NCBI GenBank assembly: GCA_048886185.1
Contig: JBHLKY010000061.1
Coordinates: forward strand, 1-5,578
Reading direction: 5' to 3'
Origin: Candidatus Hermodarchaeota archaeon
GTDB lineage: Archaea; Asgardarchaeota; Heimdallarchaeia; Hodarchaeales; Hodarchaeaceae
DNA: 5,578 bases
In this document: one piece after another, positions 1-5,578 of the stretch
Numbering within the stretch: the first letter of the stretch is position 1
Layout of the letters: each line of letters opens with the position of its first letter
Notes under the pieces: generated by a model
Told to the model about the DNA's origin: nothing
Seen by the model: the letters and a program-made list of their open reading frames with translations, nothing else
Databases searched by the model: none
Position numbers and translations under genes: made by a program

Positions 1-2
1 CA

Positions 3-59
3 GCTGGACTCCTTCTGATGTACGACCATAAAATGAGGCTTTCTAAAAGAAAAATATAG
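3..59 (+). CDS. Possible 3' end of an upstream gene cut by the window edge (...AGLLLMYDHKMRLSKRKI*)
   Basis: Frame 3 is open from the window edge to TAG at 57-59. A short hydrophobic run followed by a basic tail resembles a membrane-protein C-terminus. Only 18 codons are visible. The G of the TAG is the first base of the left repeat. Confidence 0.25.
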   Translation, partial: AGLLLMYDHKMRLSKRKI

Positions 60-88
60 TTTAGATATAGATTGGGACCTTCCAAGAC
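59..88 (+). repeat. 30-bp direct repeat, left copy: GTTTAGATATAGATTGGGACCTTCCAAGAC
   Basis: Matches 5159-5188 at 26/30 positions without gaps, with the first 18 bp identical. Contains the stem-loop TTGGG-ACCT-TCCAA (one G-T pair). Confidence 0.9.
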
Positions 89-156
89 AATGATCCTAAA
101 TCTAACAAGGGTACATACTAATTACTCTGATCTAATGAAAGATTTACAGCTGTGTT

Positions 157-170
157 GGAAAGTTTAAATA
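157..170 (+). promoter_or_regulatory. Candidate archaeal promoter: BRE-like GGAAAG plus TATA box TTTAAATA
   Basis: TTTAAATA (163-170) fits the archaeal TTTAWAWA consensus and directly follows a purine-rich hexamer, about 95 nt upstream of the permease start. An alternative TATA-like palindrome, TCTTTAAAGA, lies at 208-217. AT-rich DNA gives such hits by chance. Confidence 0.4.
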
Positions 171-252
171 AGATGAATGACATAAAAAAGGAGGTATTCT
201 TAGTACATCTTTAAAGAGTTAGATAATCATTCTACTTTTACGAAATACGGAT

Positions 253-259
253 AGGGTGA
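253..259 (+). promoter_or_regulatory. Shine-Dalgarno-like site AGGGTGA for the permease
   Basis: GGTGA core at 255-259, 4 nt before the TTG at 264. This is the typical archaeal SD form. Confidence 0.5.
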
Positions 260-263
260 TGCA

Positions 264-3089
264 TTGGTACGAGGTCAAGTTTCAAGGGGGAAAATACGAT
301 TATTATTCCAAATGTTACGAATAAATCTAAAAAAATCTTTGATTACACTCATTGGAATGATGATCGCACTTGCTATGATCGCTTCATGTTTGATTTATCT
401 AGAATCAAATGAAATAGACTATTTTTTAGGTTTTTTTGAAGAACCTATGTATAGACAGTATCCAGTCGTATATCATTTTCATGATAATCAGGGTTCAAAT
501 AGGAATTTTTCTGTTGAAGAAATTAAATCGATCCAAGGTTTTCTTAATAATCATTTTACGGAATTTAGCCTAAACAATACTCTTATTCAATCAAAATACC
601 CATTCATGTGTTCTATGTCTAAAAATACACTTCTTCAGAACACTGATAAGCGGGTTCGTTTCCTTGGAATCACTTTCGATGAATCTATCATAGAAAATTG
701 TGTTAATGGGAGTAGATATCCAAGAGCAGAAAATGAGGTGTTAGTTTATCTTCGAGAAGAAGATTCACTTAAGCTAGCAATAAATGAGACGAGTAATTTC
801 TCTGTCCCCTATAACCTTAATGACATCGGTCAGTTCTACAATCTCAGTCTAAACGTATCAGGAATATTAACCAAAAAAATTAACCAGTATCCCTCTTTCT
901 TAAGGCACATGGTTGATCCTTACGAAATTCAGATAATCCTGAACATGAATCAGTATCTATCAGTACTCAATACTTTGAGAACTCTTTCTGATGACACAAT
1001 CACAAATTCTCTTAAGTTATTTTATTCATTCGATTTTTCTCATGTAAACCAGCAAAATGTACTCCAAATTGTAAATGGATTTGCTAAATTTAGGAGATTA
1101 GATCAAGCATATAAAATTACGGTTGAGACTTTGTATGGGACAGTAAAATATGATGGTTATAGAACCTCTTCTTGGTCTTGGTCAAGTTCTATAGAAGACA
1201 GCATAAATAAATTTCAAAGATTTGTCTTTGTCTACTCTGTCCTTTGTATTCCAGCTTTTCTTATTTCATTCCTTTTAGTGAATTTTTCTCTTGGGATAAT
1301 CAATGAGCGTAGAAGAAAAACCTTAACACTCTATAAGATGAGGGGGATATCAAATTCATTCCTTTTTGTGGCTTTATCCACGGAAACTATAACTTTGGCA
1401 TTTATTGCTTCAGGGCTAGGGATAATTATTGGGATACCAGTCTTTATTTTGATAGCAATTACTACTGGCTACCTGAATTTTGATCTGGGTAAATGGCCAC
1501 AAATAATGATTATTTCTCAAACTACTGTCCTCTCTGTGATTGGAACCAGCTTGTGTTTATCCTTCCTATTACACCTCCGAACGATTACCAAGCTCGCTAA
1601 TGCCAAAATTGTTGTTTTAGAAGAGGAAGCAAGTAAAAAGAAAAAACGAAAAAGAGGCACTATTCGGCAAAATATTGATATTTTCTTATTAGTTCAGGGA
1701 ATAATAGGGATTATTGTCCTTAATTTTCTTCTAAGAATTGCGAATGAAGTTAGTCAGCTAGAGAGTAGACTTGGTATCTTTATAATGCTAGTTGTTCCTT
1801 TAATTATTTTAAGTCCCTTATTCCTCTTGATCGGTTTTCTTTTTGCATATAATAGATTAATTCCATTCATTTTAGACAAATTAGGAGGATTTTTCTGGAG
1901 AAAAGACATTAAAATGCTCGCAGTGGCAACTCGTAACTTAATTGTAAATATAAAAGTCACCATACGTACAACGATATTACTAACAGTTACCATTAGTTTT
2001 TTAATGATCTTATCCTCTCTTCCCGTCTCTTTCAACCAACATTATATTAATACAACCTATTATAAAGAAGGGAGTGACTTTGTCATTCGAACACGTTATT
2101 TCATCAATGAAAGTACAACCTGTAATCTATCAATGGAATTGAATGAACTTACTGGAGTGACTGCAACAACAGTTTCGCTTGTTGATTATGGACAGGTTGA
2201 AATAATGGGGATTGAAGATAACTTCGATCAAGTGGCCTTTTGGAAGGCTTATTATGCAAAACAAAGTCTCAGTAACCTTGTATCAGCACTTTACAGTTCT
2301 GAAAGTCAATTTCCTGTCATTATTGACACTTTTTCTCTAAAGCTAGAAAAATTGAAACCTAATGATCAGCATTTACTTAATTTAAATAAACAGAAACAGA
2401 TGAACGTTACAATTGTTGACACAACAGAGTATTGGCCCAAATTAATTGGAAGACATGGAGAAAATGACAGATTTCTTATCATAAAGAGTTCAACGTTCTA
2501 TGAATTAATCGCTGAGGGTGAATCCTATATCTGGTGCAAAATAGATCCAAGCTCAGATAAGAACGAGGTTCTTGAACAGGCTAGAAATGTTACACTTAAC
2601 TTTGGAGTTGATACAAGCTACCTCCGATATACAGAGGATTTACTAATAATGAATCAGGATGACCTTGAAGGAAATCTTCTTTGGATCATTACGAATTTTA
2701 ATTTCCTCGTTGCTCTTTTAGTGCTATTACTCCTGCTATTTTTATTTACCATGACACGATTAACAAGCCAATCAAAAGAAATAGGTTTGAGTAGAGCTCT
2801 AGGGATGAAATTTCGACAAGTATTTCTCTTAATGTTCATTGAACCCTTTGTCTTGGTTTTAATAAGTGGATTGCCAGGAGGATTAATTGGTTTAACGCTA
2901 CTAATGGTTTTTATCAACCTTGGTCAAGGCCCTCCATTAAGTTATGATCCACCGTTCATTTTAACGATTGATATACCATCTGTACTCTTTATTTATGGTT
3001 CAATACTATTCACAGCAATCATAGCTGGATTAATTACTTCGTACCGAGCAACCAGAGCTGATGTATCGAAGATACTGAAAGTGGAGTGA
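264..3089 (+). CDS. ABC transporter permease, FtsX/MacB (type VII) family, two fused halves, 941 aa
   Basis: N-terminal TM (aa ~26-46), large extracytoplasmic domain (~48-315), FtsX-like TM bundle with ERRRKTLTLYKMRG (aa ~320-440), further TMs, second extracytoplasmic domain (~590-805), second FtsX bundle with SKEIGLSRALGM, and the family-typical C-terminus [18 protein letters not shown] start with SD. Adjacent to two ABC ATPases. Confidence 0.93.
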   Translation: MVRGQVSRGKIRLLFQMLRINLKKSLITLIGMMIALAMIASCLIYLESNEIDYFLGFFEEPMYRQYPVVYHFHDNQGSNRNFSVEEIKSIQGFLNNHFTEFSLNNTLIQSKYPFMCSMSKNTLLQNTDKRVRFLGITFDESIIENCVNGSRYPRAENEVLVYLREEDSLKLAINETSNFSVPYNLNDIGQFYNLSLNVSGILTKKINQYPSFLRHMVDPYEIQIILNMNQYLSVLNTLRTLSDDTITNSLKLFYSFDFSHVNQQNVLQIVNGFAKFRRLDQAYKITVETLYGTVKYDGYRTSSWSWSSSIEDSINKFQRFVFVYSVLCIPAFLISFLLVNFSLGIINERRRKTLTLYKMRGISNSFLFVALSTETITLAFIASGLGIIIGIPVFILIAITTGYLNFDLGKWPQIMIISQTTVLSVIGTSLCLSFLLHLRTITKLANAKIVVLEEEASKKKKRKRGTIRQNIDIFLLVQGIIGIIVLNFLLRIANEVSQLESRLGIFIMLVVPLIILSPLFLLIGFLFAYNRLIPFILDKLGGFFWRKDIKMLAVATRNLIVNIKVTIRTTILLTVTISFLMILSSLPVSFNQHYINTTYYKEGSDFVIRTRYFINESTTCNLSMELNELTGVTATTVSLVDYGQVEIMGIEDNFDQVAFWKAYYAKQSLSNLVSALYSSESQFPVIIDTFSLKLEKLKPNDQHLLNLNKQKQMNVTIVDTTEYWPKLIGRHGENDRFLIIKSSTFYELIAEGESYIWCKIDPSSDKNEVLEQARNVTLNFGVDTSYLRYTEDLLIMNQDDLEGNLLWIITNFNFLVALLVLLLLLFLFTMTRLTSQSKEIGLSRALGMKFRQVFLLMFIEPFVLVLISGLPGGLIGLTLLMVFINLGQGPPLSYDPPFILTIDIPSVLFIYGSILFTAIIAGLITSYRATRADVSKILKVE

Positions 3090-3979
3090 GTACAATGCTA
3101 TTGGAGTGTAAAGATCTAATTAAAATCTACCCTTCTCCTATTGAGGGATTAATGTTCCCAGCATTACGAGGACTGGATCTTAAGGTACAACCTGCTGAAA
3201 TAATATCAATAATTGGTCCTTCAGGGGCAGGAAAATCCACCCTTTTACGACTCATATGCACATTTGATCACCCCAGTTCGGGAGAAATCTGGTTTGATGG
3301 AAAATTAGTAAATACTTTCACAGCTTCCGAATTAGAGGCATATCGTTTGAACGAGGTGGGTGTCATGTATCAAGCTCCCGAAGACAATCTTATCTGGGAT
3401 TTAAATGTCCTGCATAATATTATGTTACCAATGCGTTATTCCGGTAAATTTAGAGGGAATGAAAAAGAAAGAGCACAGGAATTGTTGGAAAAAGTTGGAT
3501 TAAAAGGGAAGACTCATCGAAAACCCTCCCAACTCTCTGGAGGAGAGCAACAACGAGTCTCAATTGCTATTGCATTAGCGAATAATCCTAAACTCCTTCT
3601 TGCTGATGAACCCACTGGGGAGCTAGATAGTGGAACCACGGCAGTAATAATTGATTATTTCAAACAATTAAACAAGGATGATGGATTAACAGTTCTTGTC
3701 GTGACCCACGATAAACGTTTTGTGAAAATGACAGATAAAACTTATAAAATTTTAAACGGGAGATTAACAACCTATCATATTCGATCAGAAGAGTCATTTG
3801 AGGTTGATCTCGAAGAAGAAGTTGTAATAGTGGACTCCCAGGGGACTCTAAGACTACCTCGTGAAGTTTTTCATCAGTTTAAAGATTTGGGAGCAGTAAA
3901 AGTCCAGATTAAAAATGGAAAAATCGAATTGATCCCCTTTAAAGATGAGGCAAAGAGTAAGGAGAAAGAACAGAAATGA
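3086..3979 (+). CDS. ABC transporter ATP-binding protein (LolD/MacB-type) with C-terminal AbrB/SpoVT-like extension
   Basis: Walker [11 protein letters not shown]-loop VMYQ, signature LSGGEQQR, Walker [10 protein letters not shown]-loop VTHD. About 60-aa C-terminal extension containing [15 protein letters not shown]. The real start may be the in-frame ATG at 3095, preceded by GGAGTGA (3083-3089), rather than GTG 3086. Confidence 0.95.
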
Positions 3980-4665
3980 TAGATCGGAAAGTTATTTACA
4001 ATTTGCAACAGGTATACCGATGGTATGAAAGTGCTGTGGAAGTCGTAAAAGCGGTAGATGGAATCGATCTTCAGATCTATAAAGGGGACTTTCTTGCAAT
4101 TTTAGGCCCTTCTGGTTCAGGTAAAACTACATTACTTAATCTTTTAGCAGGACTTGATAAGGCCACTGGAGGAACGATAGTGTTTAATGATGAAAATTTA
4201 GATGAATTAAACGATTCAGCGATATGTGATCTTAGAAGACACGAAATAGGCATCATCTTCCAGTTTTATAATATGCATCCTTCATTAACAGGCCAAGAAA
4301 ATGTGGAATATCCCATGTTGATAGCAGGTATTCCAGCACATCAACGGAGTCAGCAAGCGAATGATCTACTCAAGGAGGTAGGGGTTTTTGATAAGAAAGA
4401 CAATTTTCCTGCTGAATTGTCAGGTGGAGAAAAACAACGAATTGGAATTGCACGAGCTTTAGCGAATAATCCTCAAGTAATTATCGCGGATGAACCGACA
4501 GGAGACCTCGATTCTGATAACGCAGAGGAAATAATCAACCTCTTATTACAAGTGAATAAGCAGGGGACCACAATTATCATGGTTACTCATGATGAATCGC
4601 TCCTAACAGATGACATGAGGGTTCTGCATCTGGTTGATGGGAAAATCGTATCAATCATGAAATAG
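3976..4665 (+). CDS. ABC transporter ATP-binding protein (LolD/MacB/FtsE-type), 229 aa
   Basis: Walker A GPSGSGKTT, Q-loop IFQFYN, signature LSGGEKQR, Walker B IIADEPTG, H-loop VTHD. Its ATG overlaps the previous TGA (ATGA, 3976-3979), implying translational coupling. Confidence 0.96.
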   Translation: MIDRKVIYNLQQVYRWYESAVEVVKAVDGIDLQIYKGDFLAILGPSGSGKTTLLNLLAGLDKATGGTIVFNDENLDELNDSAICDLRRHEIGIIFQFYNMHPSLTGQENVEYPMLIAGIPAHQRSQQANDLLKEVGVFDKKDNFPAELSGGEKQRIGIARALANNPQVIIADEPTGDLDSDNAEEIINLLLQVNKQGTTIIMVTHDESLLTDDMRVLHLVDGKIVSIMK

Positions 4666-4928
4666 AGAGTGAATATTTTATAAAAACAGGATTGGAAAAA
4701 TTGTCAATAATTAAGAGACATTTAATTTTAACAGAAGGAGAATTTCCTTATCGAAGAGAGAACTTTGACATTATTACAAAAGATTAGCAAAATCTTCAAC
4801 TGATGAAACGAAAAAACTCTGTAAAGATCGTTCTAATGGTAATCCTTGCCATCCCACTTTATGGCTATGCACTGGTGTTGGTGGGTACAATATTAACTCT
4901 ATGAATCATCCTATTCTTATACAATCAG

Positions 4929-5192
4929 ATGAAAAAAACAGATAATTATTTATCTACACGAATCAGACGGAAAATCCAAATTCCTGCTTCTCCAAGGATA
5001 GAAACAGGGATTTTTTGTGAGAGATGTGGAAAAGAACTCACTCCTCACGCAAGTTATTGTGTTGTATGCGCAGCAAAAGAGTGGTTTGATTTGGCGCTCA
5101 CCCTCATTCAATATGAGGGTGTCCGCACCACTGAACAAGTAGGAAAAATTCTCAGAATGTTTAGATATAGATTGGGCACTCCCAAAACCTGA
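4929..5192 (+). CDS. Small zinc-ribbon protein (CxxC-x10-CxxC), 87 aa if started at ATG 4929
   Basis: FCERCGKELTPHASYCVVCA (cysteine codons within 5016-5069) has the spacing of zinc_ribbon_2/DZR-type ribbons. The last codons (FRYRLGTPKT) are encoded by the right repeat. Confidence 0.65.
   Translation: MKKTDNYLSTRIRRKIQIPASPRIETGIFCERCGKELTPHASYCVVCAAKEWFDLALTLIQYEGVRTTEQVGKILRMFRYRLGTPKT
5159..5188 (+). repeat. 30-bp direct repeat, right copy: GTTTAGATATAGATTGGGCACTCCCAAAAC
   Basis: Matches 59-88 at 26/30 at an offset of exactly 5,100 bp. Perfect stem-loop TTGGG-CACT-CCCAA, and ends GTTT...AAAC are mutually inverted. Confidence 0.9.
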
Positions 5193-5195
5193 AAT

Positions 5196-5357
5196 GGCTT
5201 GTGAAATTCCATATGAAGCTCCTGGCTCAGGGTTGTTCCCAATAAAATTACTCTCAGAAATATTGTTATTATTTGAAGAATAGAATCGTACTAGTCCTTC
5301 ATATTTACTATCCTTAATAGTATTATGCTTAATCGTATTATTAGAGGAAGATTGGAA
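5196..5357 (-). pseudogene. Fragment of a right-handed parallel beta-helix (NosD/CASH/PbH1-like) protein gene
   Basis: Manual - strand translation gives FQSSSNNTIKHNTIKDSKYEGLVRFYSSNNNNISESNFIGNNPEPGASYGISQA, i.e. SSNNTI-x-N-x-I repeats ending in NFIGNN...SQA, as in archaeal NosD-domain surface proteins. No start codon, stops directly upstream (TAA AAA TAG), and the family pattern is lost after SQA. Confidence 0.65.
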
Positions 5358-5389
5358 CTATTTTTATAATCTCCATCTCAAGAAAAGCA

Positions 5390-5578
5390 GTGATGAGTCT
5401 TTACAGTCTTAATCTTAGGGAAACAGTTGTACTGACCATGATATCTGAGAATTATTTCGATTTACTCATATCCTCTACAGTGCCAATAGCCATAATCGTT
5501 TATTTAAGTCGCAAGGAAGATGCTTTTCTCATTGGAGAGACAGACATAACAGAAGTCCTCACAGGTACCCTCTATTAA
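5390..5578 (+). CDS. Hypothetical 62-aa ORF, doubtful
   Basis: ORF track only. GTG start, no recognisable motif, one moderately hydrophobic segment (LLISSTVPIAIIVYL). May be non-coding. Confidence 0.2.
   Translation: MMSLYSLNLRETVVLTMISENYFDLLISSTVPIAIIVYLSRKEDAFLIGETDITEVLTGTLY

Follow-up and report, generated by a model that had tools for sequence, protein, structure and literature searches.

Two similar stretches of 30 nt stand on either side of an intact ABC transporter operon on a short contig of an Asgard archaeon. This arrangement raises the question whether the two copies are a functional element, such as a CRISPR-type repeat or another RNA or ssDNA processing signal as proposed in an initial annotation, or the trace of a past genome rearrangement. 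The window (the whole stretch of DNA analysed here) is the entire contig C61 of 5578 bp and belongs to a 96%-complete genome of 4.84 Mb in 75 contigs. Comparisons were carried out with 82 other genomes of the class, with 21 genomes of the genus and, for metagenome evidence, with Logan contigs from four sediment runs (X1-X4). The ends of C61 do not overlap with other contigs of its own genome. All features discussed below are listed in Table 1.

Table 1. Features of the window, and tyrosine recombinase genes elsewhere in the same genome (contig named before the colon).
Feature	Position	Strand	Description and evidence
Left flank	1-58	none	at contig end; no identity assigned
Left repeat copy	59-88	none	30 nt, imperfect direct repeat; hairpin at 72-85
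FtsX/ABC operon, intact	155-4665	+	includes ~110 nt of conserved upstream sequence; Pfam FtsX, ABC_tran
FtsX-type permease	264-3089	+	941 aa; Pfam FtsX
ABC ATPase 1	3086-3979	+	Pfam ABC_tran
ABC ATPase 2	3976-4665	+	Pfam ABC_tran
Zinc-ribbon membrane-protein gene, decayed fragment	4734-5072	+	tblastx to G008:C56 and G003:C63
Right repeat copy	5159-5188	none	30 nt; hairpin at 5172-5185
PbH1/NosD-type beta-helix gene, relic	5193-5357	-	BLASTP to G021 protein
XerA-like gene	C4:43052-43534		
Tyrosine recombinase gene	C27:43458-43904		
Tyrosine recombinase gene	C70:1-784	-	cut at start of contig after HxLR box

A unique 30-nt repeat at both sides of the operon

A repeat search of the window revealed a direct repeat with 26 of 30 positions identical, the two copies lying 5100 nt apart. 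Repeat positions 1-18 are exact, and the copies differ at positions 19, 20, 23 and 28. All four differences thus fall within the last 12 positions, behind the 18-nt exact block (C(12,4)/C(30,4) = 0.018). Similarity between the flanks is limited to ~30 nt and has sharp edges. Extension of the repeat with gaps yielded merely a GAAAAAT word 6-13 nt upstream, which is unconvincing.

The significance of the match was assessed with shuffled and with real DNA. In 60 first-order Markov shuffles of the window, the highest number of identical positions in a 30-nt match was 24, compared to the 26 observed. The flank-to-flank local score was 22, as opposed to 12.7 ± 1.7 in shuffles, and none of 1000 shuffles reached 22. 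As a harder control, we scored 1500 random placements of the same geometry in the real genome. Here, 11 placements (0.7%) scored at least 22, which leaves some room for a chance similarity in AT-rich DNA; however, the eight top-scoring placements all came from one repeat-rich region of contig C15, and the position of the match at a homology break and around a relocating operon (see below) would be unexpected for a coincidence. We consider chance a highly improbable explanation, and the 30-nt direct repeat is real and beyond chance. The C15 region itself (about 92,000-111,000) contains very strong internal direct repeats ~4-6 kb apart with local scores of up to 373, presumably tandem paralogous genes or a giant repetitive gene.

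Exactly two copies of the 30-mer were found in the genome, both by pattern search with 3 mismatches and by blastn-short. With the variable positions left free and 3 more mismatches allowed, the 30-mer had no match in the 82 other genomes of the class, and the exact pattern was found neither in the species-representative genome collection nor in the JGI metagenome collection. In Logan contigs of all four runs the left copy is contiguous with the ABC operon (window 48-4763, 48-4441, 63-2851 and 48-3073), and the right copy lies inside own-form contigs covering 5004-5441 in runs X1 and X4. The repeat is not an assembly artefact, because the Logan contigs 48-4763 and 5004-5441 carry both copies in their context with zero differences. 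None of the sequencing runs listed as containing the locus is an RNA data set.

The hairpin and the CRISPR-like ends

Each copy had been proposed to fold into the hairpin TTGGG-N4-YCCAA. Indeed, this hairpin is the minimum-energy structure of both copies at the positions given in Table 1, but it is weak. The left copy folds with -3.0 kcal/mol (z 0.23), and 117 of 200 dinucleotide shuffles fold equally well or better; for the right copy the values are -4.8 kcal/mol (z -0.96) and 38 of 200. When 10 nt of flanking sequence were added on each side, the z-scores became positive. The hairpin is no better than that of shuffled sequence.

The initial annotation further held that the mismatches between the copies preserve the hairpin. 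The positions of the differences are as it described: 19 and 20 lie in the loop, 23, the first base of the 3' stem arm, changes a G-C to a G-U pair on the + strand, and 28 lies outside the stem. The stem is intact in both copies. This is uninformative about selection, since four random differences would spare the stem in ~27% of cases. In our own estimate, with 10 of 30 positions paired and ~1 in 6 substitutions at a paired position keeping the pairing, a random difference spares the stem with a probability of about 0.72, and all four do so with p about 0.27. The two copies provide one G-C/G-U change and zero compensatory pairs, and their energies are within the shuffle range. Further copies of the 30-mer for an analysis of stem covariation were found neither in the own genome nor in the 82 genomes of the class and the two contig collections.

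CRISPR repeats processed by Cas6 (type I/III) are similar to the 30-mer in their length of ~30 nt, the GTTT start and a short internal hairpin. The resemblance of the ends, also part of the initial proposal, is loose: both copies start with GTTT, but only copy 2 ends with AAAC, while copy 1 ends with AGAC. In contrast to CRISPR repeats, the 30-mer occurs as two copies 5.1 kb apart, in a setting without cas genes or a match to an Rfam CRISPR-DR model. It is absent from the lineage, and its hairpin is no more stable than shuffled sequence. A CRISPR array has at least three regularly spaced copies with spacers of ~25-50 nt, compared to two copies 5100 nt apart here. A genome-wide k-mer scan for words recurring at 45-110-nt spacing detected no CRISPR array and yielded only three short coding-type repeats. 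Profiles for cas1, cas2, cas6 and RAMP proteins (PF01867, PF09827, PF01881, PF03787), which were positive in control genomes, had 0 matches in the 96%-complete genome. The window was also empty in a search against all Rfam families, CRISPR-DR models included (cmscan, E<=1).

Thus, it is extremely improbable that the 30-mer is an orphan CRISPR-type repeat, the 5.07-kb interval forming a "giant spacer", or another RNA/ssDNA processing hairpin. In its favour are the 30-nt length, the GTTT start, the AAAC end of one copy and the 5-bp stem intact in both. These features are outweighed by the lack of an array, of cas genes, of an Rfam match and of related sequences, together with a hairpin not above shuffles. 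The 30-mer also showed no similarity to array repeats of the host lineage, an outcome that by the initial annotation's own reckoning tells against its proposal. Known standalone repeat-like elements are reported to reside within CRISPR-cas loci (10.1101/2023.03.03.530964), which further argues against an orphan element at the present locus. The 30-mer can be regarded as settled in this respect: it is no hidden CRISPR or RNA-processing element, and the lineage is apparently one without CRISPR-Cas.

Gene fragments next to the repeat copies

The right repeat copy lies 494 nt beyond the operon end. The interval contains a region that covers roughly residues 76-195 of a ~426-431-aa protein, which is intact in the relatives G008 and G003 and there combines membrane segments at its N-terminus with a zinc ribbon and a long C-terminal domain. 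The + strand frame 4638-5192 is open except for a TAG (4785-4787) and a TGA (4902-4904). At these positions the relatives in G008 and G003 have Trp and Gly, and in co-occurring variants of the metagenomes the two stops are replaced by TGG (4786 A>G) and GGA (4902 T>G). The two stops are nonsense mutations in a truncated gene and not recoding. The region is thus a gene fragment cut on both sides, with two nonsense codons. One metagenome variant continues past 5064 with coding sequence for the zinc-ribbon family motif AYPV.IP; a sister population therefore carries an intact zinc-ribbon gene.

On the other side of the right copy, a beta-helix gene relic is found. Over 55 aa it shares 47% identity with a G021 protein of 678 aa (E 3e-11), in an alignment that ends with ...SQAI, and it encodes two PbH1 repeats and the family motif NFIGNN...SQA. 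The beta-helix homology ends at 5193, 5 nt from the repeat copy. The gene has no start and is counted as a relic because a stop at 5358-5360 closes its frame upstream. A word search detected no closer homologue, and 1.8 billion representatives gave distant PbH1 repeats only. Several gene fragments are present at this right end of the contig.

The left flank is short. A + strand ORF in frame 3 ends at a TAG (57-59), and a - strand frame is open through copy 1 to the contig end. The flank (1-58) had no DNA match among the 21 genomes of the genus, and its reading frame showed no similarity to the PbH1 protein of G021. The idea of one beta-helix gene split by the insert is therefore unproven: the right half is real, whereas the left flank shows no similarity. 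We also noticed that the reverse of contig C70, which ends within a tyrosine recombinase gene, can be abutted in frame to the left end of the window (1-59, + strand); no overlap or other support for this join was found. The tail of the left-end ORF was also considered as an integrase C-terminus, but its score against the C-terminus of the C27 integrase, a paralogue of the C70 protein, equals the shuffle mean (p = 0.5).

No transposase or integrase gene and no tRNA or tmRNA that might have served as a target is present within the window. In the sequence just inside the two copies (from 89 and up to 5158), inspection by eye, as distinct from a dedicated alignment, revealed no inverted repeat pair.

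The operon family in related genomes

The closest relatives of the operon, judged by permease identity, are found in G008 (61%) and G010 (57%). Homology at the DNA level covers window 155-4646 in G008 (74% identity) and 227-4646 in G010 (73%), and in both cases ends before either repeat copy. The contexts of the operon differ. In G008 its neighbours are a gene for a 1057-aa protein and an unrelated gene; in G010 the operon lies between mcmS (methylmalonyl-CoA mutase small subunit) and the pair rpoP and sui1.

In G010 the operon is part of a 7.7-kb insert between mcmS and rpoP that is flanked by a ~180-nt duplicate of the target. The duplicate copies (L016, G010:C1, 6110-6296 and 13969-14158) score 56, compared to 14.5 ± 1.6 in shuffles, and comprise the 3'-terminal ~110 nt of mcmS, the spacer between the two genes and the very start of rpoP. 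In the left copy the part ending mcmS is conserved and the sequence beyond it is decayed. In the right copy the mcmS part is decayed and the sequence at the rpoP start is conserved. Each copy has been preserved only where a gene requires it. In the genome studied here, mcmS, a 37-nt spacer, rpoP and sui1 lie uninterrupted in a row (C8:192250-192920), and this locus is the one-copy empty site that matches the insertion of the G010 type. The G010 insert contains two tandem FtsX permease genes (L016 6564-9404 and about 9540-12344) before one ATPase pair, and both are 54-56% identical to the window permease.

Further relatives carry the operon between direct repeats. G014 shows the same insertion at the mcmS-rpoP site in a more decayed form. 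In G017 a 52-nt direct repeat of the mcmS 3' end, ~83% identical between its copies, was found at L040 (G017:C63) 3604-3655 and 8339-8390. There, the operon is inverted relative to rpoP and mcmS is absent nearby. This arrangement could result from a second insertion at the same spot, or from one ancestral insertion followed by inversion and loss. A third context is provided by G001, where a direct repeat with 25 of 28 identical positions surrounds the operon (L043, G001:C2, 2516-2543 and 8182-8209) and scores 22 versus 13.9 ± 1.4, with 0 of 300 shuffles reaching this score. The syntenic site of the own genome (C3, about 49280-49380) lacks about 8.3 kb relative to G001, and the G001 28-mer, sought there as the target, is absent from it. 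No flanking repeats around the operon were found in G008 and G005.

Altogether, three of five independent operon contexts score at least 22 flank-to-flank, compared to about 2% of random genome placements, a clear excess over background. The operon is an accessory unit that relocates.

Origin of the repeat pair

The explanation we favour, and to which we give about an even chance, is that the 30-mer pair is a junction duplication, now in decay, which dates from the insertion of a mobile ABC cassette. We arrive at this reading because a unique repeat brackets a relocating operon, one copy stands at the break of a beta-helix gene, no terminal inverted repeats were seen by eye, and the window contains no transposase or integrase. 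It is supported by the relatives that hold the same operon family between direct repeats, which at the mcmS-rpoP site consist of target DNA, and by the location of the window repeat at both borders of the accessory block, outside the conserved part (155-4646). A side remark of the initial annotation, that the repeat might have been duplicated by integration, comes closest to this reading, given that the repeat brackets an operon which is found in differing contexts and is repeat-flanked in relatives.

In such a scenario, a ~5.1-kb segment (89-5158) would have inserted into a region holding a PbH1 beta-helix gene. The segment would have comprised the intact FtsX/ABC operon and the zinc-ribbon gene fragment, which may have hitch-hiked from an earlier location or may already have been resident. 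The same short stretch would have ended up on both sides of the insertion, possibly because a long staggered break was filled in, or because a circular copy entered by a single crossover within a short homologous sequence. After entry of a circle, recombination between the flanking repeats could release it again. The interrupted beta-helix gene would then have decayed and the repeat copies drifted to 87% identity, so that the repeat would have no present function and its hairpin would be incidental. We infer that the window repeat arose in the same manner as the target duplications of the relatives, and the molecular mechanism is likewise inferred.

Several observations count against a junction duplication. 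The right copy lies at a distance from the operon end, whereas the repeats in G010, G017 and G001 are adjacent to it. The left flank has no match in relatives and no similarity to beta-helix genes. The operons of G008 and G005 are without flanking repeats. An empty-site allele of the window locus was not found.

The main rival to the junction duplication is that the 30-mers are attL/attR-type sites of a tyrosine recombinase, either Xer/dif-like or belonging to an integrase elsewhere, and that the ABC cassette lacks an integrase and is mobilised in trans, in the manner of a cis-mobilisable element or a pdif module. The first 18 nt of the copies form an exact core, to one side of which all four differences lie, and an att core would account for this one-sided pattern (p about 0.02) no less well than neutral decay of an exact duplication. 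In addition, 10 of the 11 nt at repeat positions 2-12 (TTTAGATATAG, window 60-70) are shared with one arm of the dif site of Pyrococcus abyssi. The oligonucleotide for this site, which is bound and recombined by XerA, reads TTTAGATATAA-GGCCGA-TTATATCCAAT (Cortez et al. 2010, PMC2958812), and the match is to TTTAGATATAA. As in this archaeal dif, the arm of the 30-mer is followed by a spacer-like stretch, the next 6 nt being identical in both copies. Three tyrosine recombinase genes, one for a XerA-like enzyme, are present in the genome, and the C70 gene is cut by a contig end, just as the left end of the window is a contig end. However, the 30-mer lacks the second, inverted arm and thus the dif dyad: the right arm matches the left at only 4 of 11 positions in copy 1 and 6 of 11 in copy 2, and the inner TTAT is missing. 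Unlike the P. abyssi site, it does not occur as a single copy at a terminus, relatives do not share it, and no chromosomal dif matches it. The 11-mer TTTAGATATAG occurs 313 times with at most one mismatch in this AT-rich genome, and no other genome site has both arm and spacer. Palindromic dif sites of the Thermococcales type are at control level only in the genus, and dif candidates of the own genome occur at chance numbers. A dif-like arm is absent at the cassette borders of G008, G010, G014, G017, G005 and G001, whose flanking repeats, where present, differ from one another in sequence, range from 28 to 190 nt and consist of target DNA at the mcmS-rpoP site. The window contains no integrase, and the left-end ORF tail does not resemble one above shuffles. 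On balance a recombinase site is unlikely; we keep it in consideration since only 58 nt of contig lie to the left of copy 1.

Two other explanations invoke coding or regulatory sequence. The copies might be relics of two paralogous sequences, for instance C-terminal parts of PbH1 genes or an old segmental duplication, and have no relation to the arrival of the operon. Both can be read in the same - strand frame as xG(S/R)(A/S)QSISK, the right copy directly follows the PbH1 relic, many PbH1 genes are present in the genome, and the gene fragments at the right contig end would also be consistent with such an origin. Still, neither the genome nor its relatives contain a paralogue with the 30-mer or its peptide, and nothing PbH1-like surrounds the left copy. 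The sharp edges of the ~30-nt similarity, and one synonymous against three replacement differences, which indicate no purifying selection, make this origin improbable. A 16-aa look-alike of the left-copy peptide on C62 was dismissed as chance on account of its wrong frame and low DNA identity. The 30-mer might also be a common protein-binding, regulatory site ~180-200 nt upstream of the permease gene (264) and of ORF 5390, both on the + strand. Indeed, the next + strand starts follow at 176 and 202 nt, and the repeat has an internal order of tandem TAGAT(A/T) followed by the palindrome TTGGG-N4-CCCAA. Such a regulatory role is nevertheless very improbable: upstream of the G008 and G010 operons the site is missing, the conserved upstream region beginning only at window 155, it is absent elsewhere in the genome and the class, and the right copy lies among pseudogene fragments.

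In comparison with known systems, the window shares with att-flanked or target-duplicated genomic islands an imperfect direct repeat around an accessory gene block. G010 resembles them further in that the duplicated piece is a gene 3' end of which one copy is functional and the other decays. The prophages e14 and 21 in the icd gene of E. coli likewise carry a substitute 3' end, and the displaced gene end is found at the far junction. In contrast to such islands, no integrase was seen in or beside the block, and the repeat ranges from 28 to ~190 nt across contexts. Duplicated target sequence at both ends of an inserted block is also known from transposons and casposons. These duplications are short and exact, ~14-15 bp for casposons, and lie beside terminal inverted repeats and a casposase or transposase gene, whereas the window duplication is 30 nt long and imperfect, and terminal inverted repeats, casposase and transposase are lacking. 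Like pdif modules, the window has a gene module without its own recombinase between two Xer-type-looking sites. The pdif modules of Acinetobacter plasmids and Xer-exploiting IMEX, however, have full XerC/XerD sites that recur around many modules, while the sequence of the 30-mer is unique and the cassettes of the relatives are without such a site.

Read as a junction duplication, the 30-mer itself would be a genome-rearrangement footprint and would add one more case to a known class of features. The wider implication is modest: an ABC transporter operon family in close relatives of eukaryotes relocates, repeatedly bracketed by duplicated target and with no visible recombinase. If this pattern holds, it hints at how Asgard genomes shuffle accessory genes. 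A bolder and rather doubtful extension is that Hodarchaeales-type Asgard archaea possess in this operon a self-contained mobile cassette, which lacks its own recombinase and leaves target duplications of ~28-190 nt, the 30-mer pair being one footprint. Such a cassette might exit and re-enter through its own flanking repeats by host homologous recombination, or use an undescribed insertion route.

Other forms of the locus in the sediment

The metagenomes contain arrangements that differ from the window. Three of the four runs contain a contig of higher abundance in which the window up to 81, a position within copy 1, is joined to 4986-5018; on its shorter side this joint spans only 30-33 nt, matched at 90% likeness. 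Contigs of the fourth run depart from the window beyond 81 and match it from 4986 on, the adjoining sequence being unrelated. The loose-end 30-mer of the alternative form gave no match. Forms that diverge after 81 are not predicted by a simple junction-duplication model and count against it, while divergence inside copy 1 speaks for a recombinase site. Around 5002 the sequencing depth exceeds that of the operon about 8-fold. The short shared pieces may stem from other organisms with the most conserved part of the zinc-ribbon gene, or they may point to a third copy of the first 23 nt of the repeat in a sister population. At least three related populations with different arrangements of the locus coexist in the sediment.
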